Below, one piece after another: positions 322 through 17,750 of a stretch of 50,000 nucleotides of DNA; position 1 is the stretch's first letter; every line of letters begins with the position of its first letter. Origin of the DNA: Lingula anatina (taxonomy: Eukaryota > Animalia > Brachiopoda); assembly GCA_051362555.1 (NCBI GenBank), contig JBPQGU010000015.1, forward strand, positions 1 through 50,000, read 5' to 3'. The translations under genes were made by a program, and so were the position numbers. Below the pieces are notes generated by a model. That model was not told the DNA's origin and made no database searches. It worked only from the letters and a program-made list of their open reading frames with translations.

Positions 322-358
322 CAGAGTGGACATCTTTCACTGCAAGCAGAACAAACCC
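322..358 (-). CDS. 37-nt micro-exon continuing the TPR repeat (GFVLLAVKDVHS)
   Basis: Acceptor tttcag and donor G|GTGAGT. It joins in phase 0 to give NRARCHLSQ-GFVLLAVKDVHS, matching the TPR helix-B pattern G....A..D. Further exons were not resolved and the gene probably continues beyond the left edge. Confidence 0.7.
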
Positions 359-361
359 CTG

Positions 362-362
362 A

Positions 363-416
<54 letters not shown>
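362..416. repeat. (AAT)n microsatellite abutting the micro-exon acceptor
   Basis: About 17 AAT units seen directly. Confidence 0.95.
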
Positions 417-417
<1 letters not shown>

Positions 418-919
418 GATTAAAGAAGCATTCTTAAATGTATCAGACTGCCTTTGTAGATAAGATAAGTAATATATCCAGTTAACACTTTGACACTGCC
501 CTGTTTTAACAAAGTAACATTTGTCTCGACATAGTTATCAACAGATAAAGACTGTACTTTGACCCTATTAACTGAAATATAAGTAGGCATGATGGATCTA
601 AGCTGATATGAATGAATAATGAAAGTAAAAAATATATATATTAAAGACAAAATAAGCTCAAAAAAATAAATGCTCCAATTGGCTAAAAAAAAAACAAACA
701 AATGAATCACAAAAAATTACATAACTGATTTAATTTTTAAGGTGTTGGTTGTATTTAACCCTTCCCTTCTGTGGGTTCAAATTTAGAAACTTGTTTGCAA
801 ACTTTTTACCTTCACATGAACATTATCAAAGTCTAAATAAAACTTACAGTTTGCATAAATTACTAAGTCTGGATAAATTTTAGAAGGTAAAAAGAATGCA
901 TTGGTAAGAATATAGTTAC

Positions 920-1117
920 CTGGGAAAGATGACACCTTGCTCTGTTACAAAAAAGTCTACAAGCCAAGCTTGGGTCTCCTAAAGGGGGCACGCAATAAAT
1001 CAATTTGTTAAAAACATCAGTTGCCTCCTGCCAACATCCTTTTTCCATATATTTCTCTCCTTTCAGAATGGATTCCCTCAAACCTGTGCCCTGTTGTTGC
1101 TGTGCTCTACTAGCCTC
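920..1117 (-). CDS. Internal exon encoding a TPR-like helical repeat
   Basis: Acceptor T9-CAG (1118-1129) and donor CAG|GTAACT bound 198 nt, exactly 66 codons, phase 0/0. The peptide KGEKYMEKGCWQEATDVFNKLI...LFCNRARCHLSQ fits the TPR pattern (G..A...F; NRA.C.L). Confidence 0.8.
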
Positions 1118-1368
1118 CTGAAAAAAAAACTGCAAGATGAAACTCAAACAAATTTATAATTTTAACTCTTTTACATTTCATCAAGCATTAAAACCAAATA
1201 TTATATGCTTAACAGAACTTATTAATACTAATAACAGTAATGACTGTATAAATAATTACATAGTATTAGTAAATTTGTAAAAAAACAATCAGATATATAC
1301 CCAAATATAAAAGACATCAATGCTAAAAATGTCATAAAAACCTTCATATGATCGTCACTCTGACTTAC

Positions 1369-1617
1369 TGTTTTCCTAGGTTGTTTTCCGTCACTGTGTT
1401 CAGGCTGATACATAGGAGGTCCTGGGTTCATCTCAACATCTCCAGACAAAAAGAGCAGCAGGGATATCATCATCATTATCACCAGCAGAATACACCCCCC
1501 TAACTCATCACTTATTGCTTTCTGAAGATTTGGCAGAGTTCCAGATGGAGCTGCCCGAATTTTGCGATGTGCAAAGCATCCTATTCTAAGCCTCCATGCA
1601 TCTAGTGATATTCCCAT
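1369..1617 (-). CDS. First coding exon of a TPR-repeat protein gene, encoding a 66-aa leader ending in a 2A-like StopGo motif (GDVEMNPG|P) plus the start of the downstream product
   Basis: Acceptor ttacag precedes the exon start at 1646, and the ATG at 1617 has an in-frame TAG just upstream. Translation is MGISLDAWRLRIGCF...CILLVIMMMISLLLFLSGDVEMNPGPPMYQ...RKT. A consensus phase-0 donor ACA|GTAAGT follows 1369, with an alternative phase-0 donor AAG|GTTTTT after 1342. Confidence 0.8.
1417..1440 (-). other. 2A-like (StopGo) ribosome-skipping motif DVEMNPG|P
   Basis: Exact match to D(V/I)ExNPG|P, preceded by LLFLSG, similar to FMDV 2A LLKLAGDVESNPGP. The predicted skip lies between nt 1420 and 1419. 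Confidence 0.85.
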
Positions 1618-1970
1618 AGTGCTCTATATATTGTTTAGTTCAGCACCTGTAACATTAAATATTAAATTGGGAATCGATCACAGAGTCACAGTGGTGTTTT
1701 TTGACACAAACACAAATACCCTTGTAAATGAATTAAGTGTTTCAAATTGACATTAATACAGTACAACGTATATACCTTTTCAAATCATCAAAATTCTATC
1801 AGATTTTTTTCTGTTTTTTTTTAAAGAACATTGTCTGTACGTGGGACTTTTTTCATAATGGGCGTGAGCTTCCGTTTAATTTTTTATTTCCCGTCTAAAA
1901 CGATCAATGTGCTCTATTGTTTAACCTGCAATTTAGTTTCGTTTTGCTAAACAGTCAAAATCTCTCTTAC

Positions 1971-2095
1971 CTGGTGAATCTTTTTAAATAAAAATTGGTC
2001 CTTGGTGGTTGGTAGGACAGCTAGACAGCGGCATTAAATGAAGCGTAGACGTAACAAATCGTAACAGCCCTATCGTCTGGTTGACAAAACGAAAG
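1971..2095 (-). other. Putative 5' non-coding first exon of the 2A-TPR gene, containing a 16-codon uORF (2034-1984)
   Basis: Strong donor CAG|GTAAGA at 1971/1970, adjacent to the promoter motifs. The TSS position is approximate. Confidence 0.55.
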
Positions 2096-3256: not shown

Positions 3257-4102
3257 ATATGCACTCCAATTCCTTTTATAAATGCTCATAGTAGATGTTG
3301 AAGTCGTTTTTCTTTAATAACCAGTTGAACATCCCATGTTTTATTTTTATTTCTAAAAGGAAGCCTGTTTAATCTCAAGGTGTTAATTTCAGTTTTTTGT
3401 TTTTTTTTAATTAAATTTAATTTAATTAGACCTGGGCCAATGAATTTGATAAGTACTTGTAAGTTTATCACCTGAGTGTGTTATACATGTATTTAATTGG
3501 CACATTTGGGATGAAGACATCCAATTTGTTGTTATTCCATGCACATATTATTTTGATTAAGTTATACATAGTGTGTGTAAAAAGATAAAATGTCTGAGAT
3601 ATCAATCTATTCAATCAGGGATAATATTTTTCTGACTATTGGCCAATTTCTGACTTCTTGGGAGCCAATAATATAATTAGACAAGGTTTCTGTCTTGATA
3701 TCATGCCATATTTTCCAACTTTTTTGCTAAATGGCAGTCTCGCTATTCCTGTTCAATGTACTGTATTTTTATCTTAGGGAGTTCAACCCCCTTGATAATG
3801 GCTGATCTCACTGAGAAGTCATACTACCTAGTACCAAGTGTTAAGCTTGGGTTTATGCTGTTTTTTCATATAACCAGTAACTTGAATTGTGATTACTCTT
3901 CATTGGAGTTGTGAAACTAAATGGATATCAATTCATGATGGGAGTTCCTGACATATTCTTAAGTTTCCAGCTAACATCTAAATATTTGCATAATAAGAAT
4001 TCTATAAACAGTATTAATATTTATATTGCAGGTAACAGGGAATGAAATAAACGATGGCACTGACAATGACATCAACAGTAAGGTGACACATTTGGCATCA
4101 AA

Positions 4103-5092
4103 ATGACCGCCATCACAGCCAACATTGCATCCCAGAAAAGTTGTTATTGTTGCCAAACTTCACCATCATTAAGAGCACTGTCTTCATCATCTTCATCCTC
4201 ATCAACAAGGGATCCCAATAGAAACATGGACGTTGACGCTGCATTACATGAGTTAGGCATGCTCAGTTCAGTCACAGACGGGCGCAGGCAGTTTCTTCGT
4301 GAGCGCTCACGCACTCGGAGCGAGCAAGGCACCAGTTTCACAGTGGGCGGAGGCAGTTTGTGTGGCACGGGGGACACAGATATTGAAAATAACTACAGTC
4401 CTGGAAAGACTCCTTTCCAGATCATTTCTATGAATCCCAGCTATGTCACATCTTTTACCAATACCCCTACTCCTCTTCCAGAGACTGCTAGTGTTAACGT
4501 GATATCCACTCGTGGCTACCTTAACATGCAAACTGCTGAAATAGCGGATAATATGAATAACTTAAGTCTGGGGTCCAATTATCACCGTCAGCGCAGCCCT
4601 AGGGATGAGCATCATAACACTCGACTCATGAGACTTAAAATGGCGCGTTTGCGGCGCTGGAGGAAACCTTACGAAGTGCCATGGAGGTCGTCACTGGAGT
4701 TTGGAGGTTTGTCTAGTGGCTTTAGCCGAGGCAGTGGCTTAACATGTAGTCCGTCTAGTTCATGTAGCAGTACAACTGGTACAAACTCTAATGGAAACTG
4801 CCAGACGCCAACGAGAGAAGGACCGTCTTGTGGCAGTGATGGGGATGTTGATAAAGACGGGAAGCCAGGGATGAAGAGATGCGCCTCTAATTCAAACACC
4901 CCAGAGAAACTGAAGCAGGCGATCAGTCACCTTCCAACAGGGTTGACCTTTCATAGGTCACGTTCCATGGATGACTTGGACATTAAAAAATTTCCATCGG
5001 CTCAAGCGGAGAATTTAAACTACATGCTAGAAAAACGAGAGATTGATAGTATGTCACAGCATTTGAGTGACTTGAAGGTTGATGCTGAATAG
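4103..5092 (+). CDS. Uncharacterised Ser/Thr-rich, probably disordered protein, 329 aa, single coding exon
   Basis: Uninterrupted 990-nt ORF with clearly higher GC than its flanks, an acceptor about 70 nt upstream and an AT-rich 3' UTR-like region downstream. Short motifs include RERSRTRSE, LKMARLRRWRKPY and RSRSMDDL. I do not recognise the family. Confidence 0.8.
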   Translation: MTAITANIASQKSCYCCQTSPSLRALSSSSSSSSTRDPNRNMDVDAALHELGMLSSVTDGRRQFLRERSRTRSEQGTSFTVGGGSLCGTGDTDIENNYSPGKTPFQIISMNPSYVTSFTNTPTPLPETASVNVISTRGYLNMQTAEIADNMNNLSLGSNYHRQRSPRDEHHNTRLMRLKMARLRRWRKPYEVPWRSSLEFGGLSSGFSRGSGLTCSPSSSCSSTTGTNSNGNCQTPTREGPSCGSDGDVDKDGKPGMKRCASNSNTPEKLKQAISHLPTGLTFHRSRSMDDLDIKKFPSAQAENLNYMLEKREIDSMSQHLSDLKVDAE

Positions 5093-9970: not shown

Positions 9971-11420
9971 AGTTGCATAATTATGAACATGAGGAAAATC
10001 AGAAAATCATACTTGTGAAAAGTAGGTTAAGAACCAATTTAAGTTTTTTGGGAAGAAATAGGATCTTCATCTTTTATCTAGACTTGATAAAAATGGTTAT
10101 AAATTTCCGTTTATAACAAAATGCTGTGTGACAAGGAAAGATAGCAGCTTTAACTATTGAAAAATAAGGTTTTTGTTAAAAGCGCTATTCTTGAGTAGGG
10201 GAAAATATATAAAAGAAGGGTTTGGTTGAAAGGTGTATTAAGCAATCAAATGTTGGTACATGTAACCCTTTAACAGTTAGCATTGCACAGCAGTGAAAAA
10301 AAAGATTAATTTTAGATTTACGAGAAGTAAACAAATATGGCTGTATGCAGTCTGGTAGTTACGAATATTATAGAACGGCTCTTATGTTTATAAAATTGGT
10401 GATTGGATGATTAAATTTGATCTTGATTCAGCTTATTATCATCTAGACATCCGTTATCTCCATACGGGTTATTGAGTTTTTTTGTGGAAAATTCAAGATA
10501 AGCAGGTTGTTTATTTTAATTTTTTCTTCCATTTGGGTTATCATTAGTACTTCTTTTTTTGTTAATTGACTAGGCAAGTAATCAAAAAATGGAGATAGTA
10601 ATGTTTTCAAACTTTGATGTATTTATATCATGATCTGTGGTACTGTAGTAACAAAGATAGATTGGAGCATCACGGTGCTGAGATCAAAGTCAGATTGCTA
10701 AGTCAGATTTTATGCAAAATCAAAATTCTTGATATTAGATATTAAGAGAACTGGCATTGATATTCGCACGAAAGAGAGCAGAGGTCAATTGGTCCACGTT
10801 AAAAGTCTGTCTGGTTTTGTTGGTCAGATTATATCTGTTTTTATTGTGTTGAGAAGTGTAACGCAACTAAATGATGGAGTATATTAGCATGGTTATTTTT
10901 TAAAAGTGCTCTATTTTTGGAATCAGAAAATGTTGTGTGTAAAGACGCATAAAGTCAAATTGGACTTAGCGTACAGATCTTGCTGTAGTAAATCAGAATT
11001 TTACAGTTTTAACCTCAGTGCAGTAAGGTAGTTTATTCTGGTGCTAGTAGTACTGGGTTTGGAGGATATTGTGTGGAGACACCTGAAAGGGAGTGTCACG
11101 GGCTGATGAGGCGACGGAGAGCTCTACTTACAGAGACCTGTTAGCTGTTTACAGGGTCCTGTATTCCATGGCAAACACGCTGAGTGGTTCGAGATTGAAT
11201 TGGGTTTTCTGATAACAAAGATATTGTAAATATAAAAGAAAGAAGTAGCATAAAGGGTAAATTACAACCTATTATTTTAGATATTTTTCTTCTAATGACG
11301 TAGTGGAGTAATTCAATAGAAATGGAAGGATACTGGGATAAGAAAAGGTCAGGCAAATTACATAAGTAGACATGTGGATGTTGATGATTGGGTGAAGATT
11401 TTTTTCTCACACTTTGATAA

Positions 11421-12032: not shown

Positions 12033-13662
12033 AATAATAATAATAATAATTTATTGAGCACTAAAATGTTTCAGTACATTTTGCAAGCCCTCTAAACTAC
12101 TTGTATATAGATACATTTAGTACAATCTAGACCTATTATCACAATAAAAATAAATAAATAAATAATAATAATGATAATAAGATAAAAAAATACCTATATT
12201 ACATAATGACAATTACATTGCTCTGTATTGTGGTAGACTTGCTCATTATTATTGACAGGCTAGTCTTTTTTTAAATGTTTGTTGGATGAAGTGACACACG
12301 GTTTTTAGGGAGTGTTCACTTTGAGGATTGAGAAGCCAGGCAAGTTTTTCTAAATCAGATGACATTTGCGGCGGTATCATTTTTATCATTTTTTCTCTTT
12401 CGTTCACATGCTCATTACATTTTAGTAGGAAATGCACTTCTGTTTCAACATCATTGCAATGTGGACATATTCGGTTTTCTACTGGTTTTTTTGGGTTTTG
12501 TGTAGCGACCTCTTTCAATTTCTAGGTCATGGTCGCTGATTCGAAATTTCGCAAGTGTTTTTATTTCATTTAGAGGGACTTTCATTGTGAGATAATTTTC
12601 TGGAGTGTAGGATTTCTTTATTGCTTTATAGGTTCTTAGTTTGCTTTTATTGTCACTGTGCAGATCGGTCCAAAAAAGTTCTTCAATTTTTTTAATAACA
12701 TTTACTTGAAGTAAGTTTGGGTCTACAGTGTTTAGATCTGTTGACAGTCCCCAGAGGTCTATAAAAGTTTTTAGAGAGCTTGACCAGCTAGGCCCTTTTA
12801 AATGGATTTCTCTTTCATAGATTTGTTTCACGATTCTATTTGGAGCAAGTTCTTTGAAACGAATTTGGTACTTAAAAACATGTTTTGCAATATCTGTGTA
12901 GAGTGGCAGCCTTCCAAGTTCTGCCCTACTTGCATTGTTGCTTGCATATTTCCGTACACCAAGAGCCCACTTACACGTTTTTAGATGGAGCTGCTCAAAA
13001 GGCATTTTATTAATTTTTTGGAGGGAGATTTTCTTATCTTTAAATAGTTCCTCTGCCCAAACTTCACAACCATAGAGTAAGATTGGCTTGACGGTTTTAT
13101 CAAAGAGTTTCATGTATAGTAGGGGAGAAGATATTTGGTGTGAAGAAAGTGCTGTTTTCAGTGCAAAAGATGCTTTCATTGCATTTTGTTTCAGGTTTTC
13201 AATTGCTTTTTTTAAAGACCCTGTGTTTGTGAAGGTTATTCCTAAGTATGTGAAGTTCTTCACAGATTCTATGATTTTGTTATTTATATAGAAGTTAATA
13301 TTCTTGTCTAGTTTCCCTTGTTTGTTAAAGATGACAACTTTTGACTTTTTCTCATTTACCTGAAGCTTCCATTTTCTGCAATATGTTTGAAGTGCTAATA
13401 AGTGGCCTTGTAGTCCTTCCTTGCTAGTTGATAACAGGACAAGGTCATCTGCATAGAGGATGTGGTTTAGGCCATCAATTGAGCAGTCCTTATTTTTGTT
13501 CTTTAAGATTTCTTTGATATCATCAATGAACACATTAAAGAGGGTAGGACTCAGATTATCCCCTTGTCTGATTCCTATCCTTGATATAAAAGGCTTTGTG
13601 TACCCTTCCCCAACAGAGATGCCTAATCTGGTGTTACTGTACATTGTTTTAATGATGCTGCA
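12033..13662 (-). mobile_element. 5'-truncated LINE (non-LTR retrotransposon, tentatively RTE-X-like): RT C-terminal half, CCHC finger, 3' UTR and (TTA)n tail
   Basis: ORF 12451-13644 contains GIRQGDNLSPTLF, LYADD, YLG and RISDHDLEIERGRY. ORF 12249-12518 contains CPHC..ETEVHFLLKC after one frameshift. AATAAA and a (TTA)n tail lie at about 12033-12055, and a candidate TSD ATTTAT occurs at 12027-12032 and 13663-13668. Confidence 0.92.
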
Positions 13663-16600
13663 ATTTATGCCCAGTAAAAATTCTTGGAAATAGGCTTATT
13701 TAGATTTAATTGGTAAGCCTCGATCCTAGCTACAGCTTTTCAAATTTATAGGGCCTATTTTAAATATAATATCGATGAGTTACAATGAAAGTTATATATG
13801 AAAATTTTATGGGGGGGGGGGGGGGGAGGGAGGGGGTAATGATGCAGGGAAGCAACGATGCGGGAAAGTAACGATTCGGAGGAGTATTGGTGTCGTGGAG
13901 TGACGGTGCGCGTACAACAGTAATTTTAGGGGGTACGTTTCGATGAGGGAATCTATCGGTGTGGGGTCGTATCGATGCGAAAATTAAAAAAAAAATCAAG
14001 CAAATGCTCTCAAGGCACTATTTTCCCTCAAAACAGGTGGGACTGTACTCAAATAGGGCTAAAAATCACGTTTTGATAGATACAATCAACAGTACCGGTA
14101 AGTCTTTAAAGAAAAATATCCAACCCCCCATTTTTAGTATTTTTTCGCATTAGGATTATTTATTAAAGCGTACGTGTATTCATCGCGATCTATTTTGTAA
14201 ATAATTTTAGTCTGGATTATGCTTGGATTGATCCTTGTCACTGTTTGGCAACTCGCCTTTAATGAATGCTGATCGACAGACAAACTTAGAGTTCTTCTTT
14301 AAAGAACACTATCTAACCCCTTTGCCTTGTGGCATAATGTCTTTATAAAGGTAATTTATGTAGTGTGAAGGGGGTGACTACCCTGGCAATACGGAAATCT
14401 AGAACCTAGGGTAAGGGTGACTTGCCTCACTTAAAAAGGGAATCGATCTTCATGCTGGTTGGAGCTGAACTGATGCTAACTAACTTTGTACAAATAAGGT
14501 TTTAATTATTTTAAAGAATTTTTGACATTATTGAACATTGCATATGAAAAGTTTTGATACGATTAAAATAATGGGTAATAAAGATCATGGGTTACTATTT
14601 AGCTCTGGCGTTAACTTCGTCTTGCGATATAAATGAATAAATGTTGCAAATTAAACTTTATTATAGTGTACTGTGTATGTGTTATACGACGACGTTAACT
14701 ACTTCTCCCCCAAGCCCCCCCCCCCCCCCCCCCCCCCCCATAGCATGTTTCTTTTCATATCGAAATGTTTTCAAGGCGTGGCAAAGAATCCCATCAACTG
14801 TTTTATTACTCATTCATTGTAGCAGCATGTTTTAAAATATTAAAACAAATTCATTTTTATAGGTACACATATTAATCGATAAAAAAATATAAACATTCAC
14901 CTTATTTCCTCGGTGTTGAGTTTTGTGGCAGTAATGTTTCAAAGAATTATGTAAGTATGCACGATGGAAGGCGCATGCACAATATTTGTGGAATAAAATA
15001 GTGAATTTTAACAGCAAGCGGAACTCAGTAAAATCTACAGGTACATTAGGGGCGGGTCCAGGTTTTTTTGAAGGGGGGGGGGGGGGCGTTTACTTTTTAC
15101 GGATTGACAGGCTTCGGATTGCGAGGCCGACCCTCACCCCGTTGGCGTTATGTTCGGGGCATGCTCATAGGCGCCGAAAAAATGGGGGTTTATTACGGCA
15201 AATGCATTTAACCAAGAACATTCATGAACACTTTCAACCACATTCCCTCGCCTGAAATGAACCATACCTGACTGAAATTTGCATAACAATAACTTGCTCG
15301 TCGTAGTGCGAGCTGTTTTTCCGAATACTCACTCGGCAGTAGGACACAGCAGGGTGAAGACGCAACATCTGTGGTGCAGTCGCAAGGTCGAGCTTTTGTG
15401 AGGCGTAGAAGCAAATGCATGTTTCGTAAGTATCACTTTTTCTTCAGTAGCGTATGTCAGTTGATAAAAAGAGAGTAGAAGAATGCAAGGAAATTTATGA
15501 AAAGTATTTACTGGTGTGTTACTACTCTTTGTTATATTTTGCCTGTCGTTTCTGTTATGACACTCAAAATATTATTAAGCAAATTACTAAATGGGCATAC
15601 CACCACAAAGATCACGGACTTATTTAGATGAAAATACCGAACTTGCCACTGTTCCGAACTTTTGATCCAAAGACAAGCGTGCCCCATCAACGTGTACATC
15701 AATTTTATTCAAACGTCTCATTTTACGACAATCTCGCTAGTTCAAAATTTTTAAATCAGTATTTGTAGGTTTGTTTACCTCATTTTACATGTACCTGTAA
15801 AATGTTTGTAAGCAGTGTTGAAATACGGGATAATGATTTAAACTAAAGCTCAGTATGGCTTGATGCAAAGCTATTTTAGATATTACAACATTATATAGTG
15901 GGTAAAATAAATAAACGTCCGTAGTGATGACCGCCACAAATTAGAGGAGTATTTTCAATATTTATTTTTTCAAAGATATCTGAAATATCTTTTTTTACTA
16001 ACTTCAGGTCTTAATTTTGGTATTAGGCAACTTAGATATCGATTGCTTTTTTGATGTTCTATCTAAGCCTGAACTTTGGACAAGTCGGTAAACACCCTTC
16101 TCATTTCAAGTCCCTCTTCTCTTAGATGTAAAATGCATTGGTCGTATCTTCCGAGCCTGCCCGTTTAGTCAGATATTGTTAACGTTATCTTCTCATTTCA
16201 GAAGTCCACTGAGATACTGAGAACTGCACGACACCCGCCTGCTAGCAACCAAGCCTTCCTTTCATGGTCTGGAGCACTTCACACATCCGTGCATCTTTTG
16301 TTTTAAAATTGAATAAATACGCTTGTAATTTCTTGTTTTCTTTTCACTTCGGTTTGAAATAATGATAAAGATATTGGCAATAATAGAGGGTTAGGGGTAA
16401 AATTATAAAGATATGATTATTGTCTGAGCACTTTCAAATTAAATCTGCTTAAACTGATTTGTAAGCATTGTTTGGGATTGATGATTTCTACAGTCACAGA
16501 AGATGTCTTAAAAGATTTAAAAGTTTTGTTAATATGCCCAATATTTTGTAAATAATTGAGTTTGAGCATTTTAAGAATACATCTACAGGATTTTCCAATA

Positions 16601-17214: not shown

Positions 17215-17750
17215 AAGAATGGTCTCGGCCCACCTGTCACCCCTTAAATTAAATGGTGTCGCCCAACCTGTCACCCCTCACATTAAATGGACTCGCCCCA
17301 CCTGTCACCCCTCAAATGTAAAATGGACTCGCCCCACCTGTCACCCCTCTTATGTAAAATGGACTCGACCCACCTGTCACCCCTCAATTGGAAAATGGAC
17401 TCGCCCCACCTGTCACCCCTCAAAAGTAAAATGGACTCGCCCCACTTGTCACCCCTCAAATGTAAAATGGACTCGCCCCACCTGTCACCCCTCTAATGTA
17501 AAATGGACTCGCCCCACCTGTCACCCCTCTAATGTAAAATGGACTCGCCCCACCTGTCACCCCTCAAAAGTAAAATGGACTCGCCCCACCTGTCACCCCT
17601 CATAGGTAAAATGGACTCGCCCCACCTGTCACCCCTCAAAGGTAAAATGGACTCGCCCCACCTGTCACCCCTCAAAAGTAAAATGGACTCGCCCCACCTG
17701 TCACCCCTCAAATGTAAAATGGACTCGCCCCACCTGTCACCCCTCAAATC
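17215..17750. repeat. 36-bp minisatellite, about 15 copies (AAAATGGACTCGCCCCACCTGTCACCCCTCAAATGT)
   Basis: Period of 36 seen directly (ATG at 17287, 17323 and so on). The first two copies are degenerate. Confidence 0.97.

Follow-up and report, generated by a model that had tools for sequence, protein, structure and literature searches.

In StopGo translation, the nascent 2A peptide keeps the Gly-Pro bond from forming. Once the chain has been released, the ribosome may resume, terminate or read through (PMC12846837, PMC4981915). In the class A viral 2A peptides (FMDV F2A, P2A and T2A; PMC12338488; Li 2026, PMC12846837), a Leu-rich stretch lies upstream of a D(V/I)ExNPG|P core. Leaders containing 2A are also found in the ORF2p and ORF1p of APE-type non-LTR retrotransposons, or LINEs (Odon 2013, PMC3708506; PMC13405545), and a throttle role has been proposed for the 2As of LINEs (PMC3894237) and of hosts (PMC13405545). 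Among host genes, the NLR proteins of Strongylocentrotus purpuratus carry N-terminal, hydrophobic 2A signal sequences with possible dual targeting (Roulston 2016, PMC4981915). An earlier note on the locus studied here had taken cellular 2As to occur mainly in non-LTR retrotransposons and a few invertebrate gene families, which proved too narrow, as host N-terminal 2As are described for NLR, RapGEF, ankyrin-like and death-domain proteins (PMC13405545). In that study, host 2A-like peptides fall mostly into the ‘reduction’ classes, and they were proposed to be regulators of expression (PMC13405545). Rao 2025 regarded the effect of an N-terminal 2A location as unclear (PMC12338488), and Roulston 2016 deemed speculation about the origin of host 2As fruitless, the motif being so short (PMC4981915).

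We analyzed a 2A-bearing gene of the brachiopod Lingula anatina, which lies at the start of contig JBPQGU010000015.1; the window is the whole stretch of DNA analyzed, 50,000 nucleotides. The Lingula feature would work like a class A StopGo sequence and resembles the sea-urchin NLR leaders and the LINE leaders most. It shares the core and the Leu-rich upstream stretch of the class A viral peptides, but lies in a spliced host gene, 66 residues into the protein, instead of between viral proteins. With the APE-type leaders it shares an N-terminal motif, a variable spacer, a hydrophobic helix and the 2A; unlike them, it is followed by no ORF1p, APE or RT, is bounded by host introns and is fused to TPR-like exons. 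The sea-urchin leaders likewise belong to host genes, but they are 26 residues long and sit on DEATH-NACHT-LRR proteins (PMC4981915), whereas the Lingula leader has 66 residues and an extra, LINE-linked motif. Other host genes with 2A-like sequences, namely those for teleost RapGEF, sponge ankyrin-like and death-domain proteins, differ from the Lingula gene in their downstream domain (PMC13405545), and no TPR annotation was found among the 344 structurally annotated proteins of that study. Host genes with an N-terminal 2A are thus already a known kind, and the Lingula peptide itself has been catalogued and screened.

Structure, transcription and product of the Lingula gene

The gene is encoded on the minus strand and extends past the window's first base, beyond exon 4. 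GT donors and AG acceptors border the exons at 1617-1369, 1117-920 and 358-322 (-), which join in one frame to give 161 stop-free codons, with the leader's NPG end at residue 66, followed by P67-P68-M69. The non-coding exon 1 (1971..2030, -) was identified from read depth in bins 1933-2100 in four of four runs, joints to exon 2 and a GT donor at 1970; its limit at 2030 is approximate, the 5' end being unmapped. Exon 2, which in full spans 1369..1646 (-), contains 29 nt of UTR, the 66-residue leader, the 2A motif and a 16-residue linker, and is supported by reads, splice sites and the RefSeq proteins P0001 and P0002. Its ATG (1617-1615) has A at -3 and G at +4. Exon 3 (920..1117, -) encodes a Gln/Gly linker together with the initial TPR-like helices, according to reads, a sub-threshold Pfam TPR_2 match and the ESM Atlas, and the 37-nt exon 4 (322..358, -), which carries on the second TPR-like repeat, is based on the RefSeq models, on read depth and on seven loose-ended reads at 322 in run X8.

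The RNA evidence comes from four of nine listed Lingula runs (X1, X4, X7 and X8), with 6-26% of each run covered, and the stranded runs X1 and X4 assign the RNA to the minus strand. The joint of exons 1 and 2 (1971>1646) was seen in three reads of X7 and four of X8, with UTR polymorphisms, and in a variant form in two reads of X4, while six reads of X1 span the joint of exons 2 and 3 (1369>1117) with canonical ends. Of the three junctions that the earlier note proposed for mapping, these two were therefore recovered from reads. The third, 920>358, was absent from the listed read joints; an (AAT)n repeat beside it (356-423) was skipped in joint detection, and the joint is placed by X7 and X8 depth over exon 4 and by the presence of this exon in RefSeq XP_013402126/7. 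Read depth over the gene was low (at most 9), and X4 had no reads over exons 3-4. The note's account of exons spliced in phase through GT-AG sites into one ORF with a 66-residue leader held up, as did its description of an intron-containing host gene with a canonical 2A in frame. Altogether, our results confirm the 2A-bearing, spliced and transcribed Lingula gene as a real feature.

Beyond exon 4, the seven X8 reads continue from 322 into off-window sequence that is open for 10 visible codons, with a consensus agreement of only 0.77. No credible match to this loose end was found in the window; one at 10176 (8 mismatches; 1 of 500 shuffles as good) was dismissed, since it is AT-rich and wrongly oriented. 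Between 2501 and 21200, the window showed no paralogous exon. A possible upstream ORF of 16 codons lies in exon 1 (window 2034-1984, -), provided that the transcript starts above 2034.

The leader ends in LLFLSGDVEMNPG|P (residues 66|67). Its 2A/StopGo core, GDVEMNPG|P, occupies 1417..1443 (-), with the predicted skip between 1420 and 1419, and contains the only NPGP in all six frames of the 50 kb; chance matches to D[VI]ExNPGP are expected at about 2e-4. The upstream helix of the 2A corresponds to a hydrophobic stretch at residues 39-57 (1447..1503, -) with a 19-residue Kyte-Doolittle mean of 2.83, and a single-sequence AlphaFold model places a helix at residues 28-59 (pLDDT 62-84). The gene has the in-frame D(V/I)ExNPG|P core, the Leu-rich upstream helix and the spliced, transcribed ORF expected of a class A 2A/StopGo sequence. 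If left unskipped, helix 39-57 could be used as a signal anchor. An ESM Atlas query with the leader gave no usable match. Translation from Met69 only was judged unlikely, because five in-frame Met codons precede it and the context at Met1 is strong.

A search with exon 3 (proteins of 117-2000 residues) returned a single match, the RefSeq uncharacterized protein LOC106167800 of Lingula anatina (P0001), whose models XP_013402126/7 have the same exon chain and share 153 of 161 residues with the window ORF. Both isoforms stop just past exon 4, at 163 and 174 residues. The TPR-like repeats that the earlier note saw after the linker, and whose family it proposed to identify with HMMER, drew a Pfam TPR_2 match below cut-off (E=0.036; 14.6 bits, cut-off 27), and no Pfam TPR was found for P0001 or P0002 at E<=0.05. 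In the ESM Atlas, the best match scored 0.96, TPR-bearing clusters scored 0.91-0.96, and TPR_1 or TPR_2 was annotated on 10-26% of members in four of the five cluster sets listed. NCBIfam gave no match, and a search of PDB sequences gave no TPR match. The single-sequence AlphaFold model of P0001 was non-helical over the TPR-like part (pLDDT 56) and too poor for a fold search. The second repeat, examined by eye, is one that we take to fit the TPR consensus. Together these observations weakly indicate that the downstream product is a TPR-repeat protein. The search for orthologues suggested in the note yielded none, whether with exon 3, with P0002 (proteins of 306-2000 residues) or with phmmer, which found no TPR relative among 1.84 billion representatives; its sole match to residues 101-164, a proline racemase, was dismissed as chance. 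A functional full-length product is only putative, because the RefSeq models stop at 163 and 174 residues and many of the variants in the TPR part (5 of 8) are replacements.

Homology of the leader to LINE leaders

With the Lingula protein as query, phmmer returned 22 non-self matches at E<=0.001 among the 1.84 billion representatives. Nineteen of them align across the leader, starting at residue 1-3 and ending at residue 69-88, two cover the 2A only and one is the spurious racemase. Alignment A1 showed two conserved blocks, the 2A and an N-terminal motif, MGxxxxxWRxRIGxF (residues 1-16; 1570..1617, -), separated by a variable spacer, and the Lingula leader is 29-43% identical to LINE leaders. 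Longer proteins were sought with a profile, which yielded 22 matches. An ORF1p-body profile gave 12 of these more than 100 bits (11 being in its training set) and one a weak score; among the others, two were APE endonucleases and two were viral polyproteins, while five were unassigned or 2A-repeat proteins. Set A2 consisted of 13 leader-bearing ORF1p-like proteins hand-picked by eye, whose profile matched human LINE-1 ORF1p at E=3.4e-14 and whose model matched 2ykp in Foldseek at E=4e-10. The profile from the 13 ORF1p scored the Lingula N-terminal motif at 28.1 bits, against 7.3 for the best of 2000 shuffles, a partly circular comparison. The distance from the W/Y of the motif to the Gly of the skip site was 49-67 residues (59 in Lingula) for 39 of 41 proteins, among which are several near-duplicates, and 129 and 143 in the other two.

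The N-terminal motif was present in 13 of 57 metagenome 2A loci and in 0 of 80 viral loci, counts which are not prevalence estimates, because the profiles were seeded from the Lingula leader and the sets gathered with it. A viral origin of the whole leader was rejected on the viral count. Long APE-RT ORFs at two metagenome loci (L011 and L040) bear the same leader. Independent support came from two ORF1p entries of a preprint that had been collected by NPGP alone, of which KAH9367238.1 starts with the exact motif and GFS00708.1 with a looser form (PMC13405545).

Thus, homology extends past the 2A core, and the downstream parts of the relatives are ORF1p or APE-RT. By these sequence comparisons, the whole leader, and not only its 2A, is shown to be homologous to the leaders of LINE ORF1p and ORF2p. 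The Lingula gene is nevertheless not a retrotransposon gene, because neither ORF1p nor RT lies downstream of the leader; the ORF1p-body profile found no such body in the window (best E=3.8), and the reading frame of exon 2 terminates inside the intron. The host gene likely acquired its leader from a LINE, a direction that we infer because LINE carriers are many and the host lineage is one. The open-access literature, as far as it was accessible, contained no 2A-TPR gene, in line with the earlier note, and neither the N-terminal motif nor a link of the Lingula host leader to LINEs.

The two-part leader also heads five proteins (P0007, P0010, P0011, P0035 and P0041) belonging neither to ORF1p nor to APE. 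On inspection by eye, these resemble THAP-finger, zinc-finger or DNA-transposon-like proteins; Pfam did not confirm this. Their occurrence suggests that the leader module has been reused repeatedly. In addition, a PTPRT-like protein of Mya arenaria (P0042) has a 2A and an ORF1p body, to which a transmembrane segment and a tyrosine-phosphatase domain are attached; it may be a further case of host capture or an artefact of the gene model.

Selection on the leader was approached through 29 coding read variants in 23 codons. All four variable codons in residues 1-16 and 52-67 were synonymous, while 15 of 19 elsewhere change the residue (Fisher p=0.008), and within the leader replacement codons numbered 0 of 32 in the conserved blocks versus 7 of 35 outside (p=0.012); for both comparisons, the block limits come from alignment A1 but were fixed after the variants had been seen, depth was at most 9, and alleles and paralogues are mixed. 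Constraint on both conserved ends of the leader is no more than suggested by these counts. None of the listed coding variants was a frameshift or stop.

Activity of the 2A peptide and its likely output

The motif is already present in two published catalogues (PMC12338488, PMC13405545), so that it is not new in itself. In Table S2 of Rao 2025, its 15-mer occurs four times (A14178, A21213, A28549 and A32170), three of these rows being from Lingula, and one Lingula row places the motif at positions 4-19, i.e., with a start near Met48-50 (PMC12338488). Two further distinct Lingula 2A peptides are each present twice in that table (A6181/A16699 and A14171/A22316), and therefore the Lingula genome contains more 2A-bearing genes (PMC12338488).

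Snell and Matreyek 2026 cloned a 60-mer that is identical to window 1476-1417 in 59 of 60 nt; it represents the Met51 allele, as in RefSeq and in three of three X1 reads, whereas the window allele has Ile51 (PMC13405545). For the Met51-allele 20-mer, Sort-Seq gave R 2.35, G 2.37 and IR 2.14, compared with 2.25/2.54/2.30 for P2A and 2.9-3.1/3.1-3.5/2.9-3.1 for five non-skipping controls (PMC13405545). From these values, the distance of the allele to P2A is 0.26, and that to the non-skipping controls is at least 1.26. The Lingula 2A peptide is therefore probably active, since its scores lie near P2A and far from the non-skipping controls. The SVM of that study placed the 20-mer in ‘Falloff Only, Reduced Protein Levels’, a machine-called class derived from pooled HEK293T fluorescence of 20-mers, the classifier being 86% accurate when applied to the set it was trained on; the authors require individual confirmation for any single peptide (PMC13405545). 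The same table classes a one-residue T2A variant as ‘nonskipping, reduced’ (PMC13405545), so that the outcome for the Lingula peptide may be skipping or fall-off. Published reporter data of the general kind that the earlier note had proposed exist for the 20-mer of a near-identical allele, with scores in the active range and a class of fall-off instead of clean skipping.

The reading that we favor, with somewhat more belief than doubt, is that this transcribed host gene has a first coding exon that is likely a LINE leader, and that ribosomes stall at its 2A, release the 66-residue leader and frequently fall off, so that a Pro-initiated, probably TPR protein is reduced. The ribosome would likely stall at the 2A motif and release the leader, after which it would often fall off, with only partial resumption, and the leader exon would act as a throttle on the downstream Pro-initiated protein. 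This outcome is projected onto Lingula cells from a heterologous reporter. With Gly66 in the P site, helix 39-57 would still be inside the exit tunnel; release of the leader would therefore precede SRP binding, and the skipped product should in turn be cytosolic, with membrane targeting confined to any product of read-through. Co-translational engagement of SRP would thus be open to read-through chains only, and at the moment of the stall the N-terminal motif would be just outside the tunnel.

More broadly, and as a tentative proposal that we consider rather doubtful as it stands, many cellular 2As might be the tail of a two-part mobile leader of 60-70 residues from LINE ORF1p and ORF2p that hosts captured as an exon. 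Its N-terminal MGxxxxxWRxRIGxF, just outside the exit tunnel at the NPG|P stall, might recruit a factor choosing skipping, fall-off or mRNA decay, with the Lingula TPR-like gene as a domesticated, selected copy. The second conserved motif ties a host 2A to LINE leaders across 66 residues, which makes the Lingula gene a concrete test case for the donation of a translational control element by a retrotransposon, and suggests that part of the functional unit escapes screens of 20-mers.

The best of the alternatives to the throttle reading, though an unlikely one, is efficient, clean StopGo, with near-equimolar leader and Pro-initiated TPR protein and little fall-off. This is the output that the earlier note had expected, and as stated it is unsupported, the sole assay having returned a machine class of fall-off with reduced protein. 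The canonical core fits such an outcome, as do the upstream hexapeptide, which resembles an LLLLSG-like group, the increase in 2A efficiency with longer native context (PMC12846837) and the fact that the allele scores closest to P2A. However, its IR of 2.14 is below those of P2A (2.30) and T2A (2.53), and the seven other LFLSGD peptides were classed as fall-off/reduced (two), skipping/reduced (one), skipping (one), nonskipping/reduced (one) and nonskipping (two) in the same table (PMC13405545).

We regard it as improbable that the gene is a young or decaying chimera, in which the 5' fragment of a LINE became an exon placed between a host promoter and TPR exons, where it either has no selected role or simply cripples the gene. 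The failure of the protein searches to find an orthologue, the short RefSeq models, the low read depth, the abundance of replacement variants across the linker and the TPR part and the lack of X4 reads over exons 3-4 would all agree with decay. Against this, variants at both conserved ends of the leader are only synonymous, the listed coding variants include no frameshift or stop, and X8 reads splice on from exon 4 into sequence that stays open over the 10 visible codons. Furthermore, with no ORF1p body downstream, the two motifs persist without the element, which also counts against decay. Finally, predominant read-through, with the leader as a signal anchor or dual-targeting signal taking the TPR protein to the ER as in the sea-urchin NLR 2As (PMC4981915), is the least probable alternative, since the allele scores far from the non-skipping controls (PMC13405545) and the Met1 context is strong, even though basic residues precede the 19-residue hydrophobic stretch, the sea-urchin signal sequences offer a precedent and the start near Met48-50 implied by the Rao entry (PMC12338488) would suit it.

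Other features of the window

A divergent gene on the plus strand (~2353-2411 and 4036-5092) shares the promoter region with the 2A gene, and reads splice its 5' exon from 2411, where it ends, to 4036; a Ser-rich frame of 336 codons without a Pfam match follows. Between the two genes, near 2110, lies the palindrome TGACGTCA. A fragment of a non-LTR-type reverse transcriptase is located at 12451-13695 (-; RVT_1 E=8e-22), and no 2A leader was detected near it. A 36-bp minisatellite with 14.9 copies occupies 17218-17749, and from 21185 to 50000, the window end, the sequence consists of a 362-bp satellite array of 79.6 copies with 99% identity and a strong strand skew.
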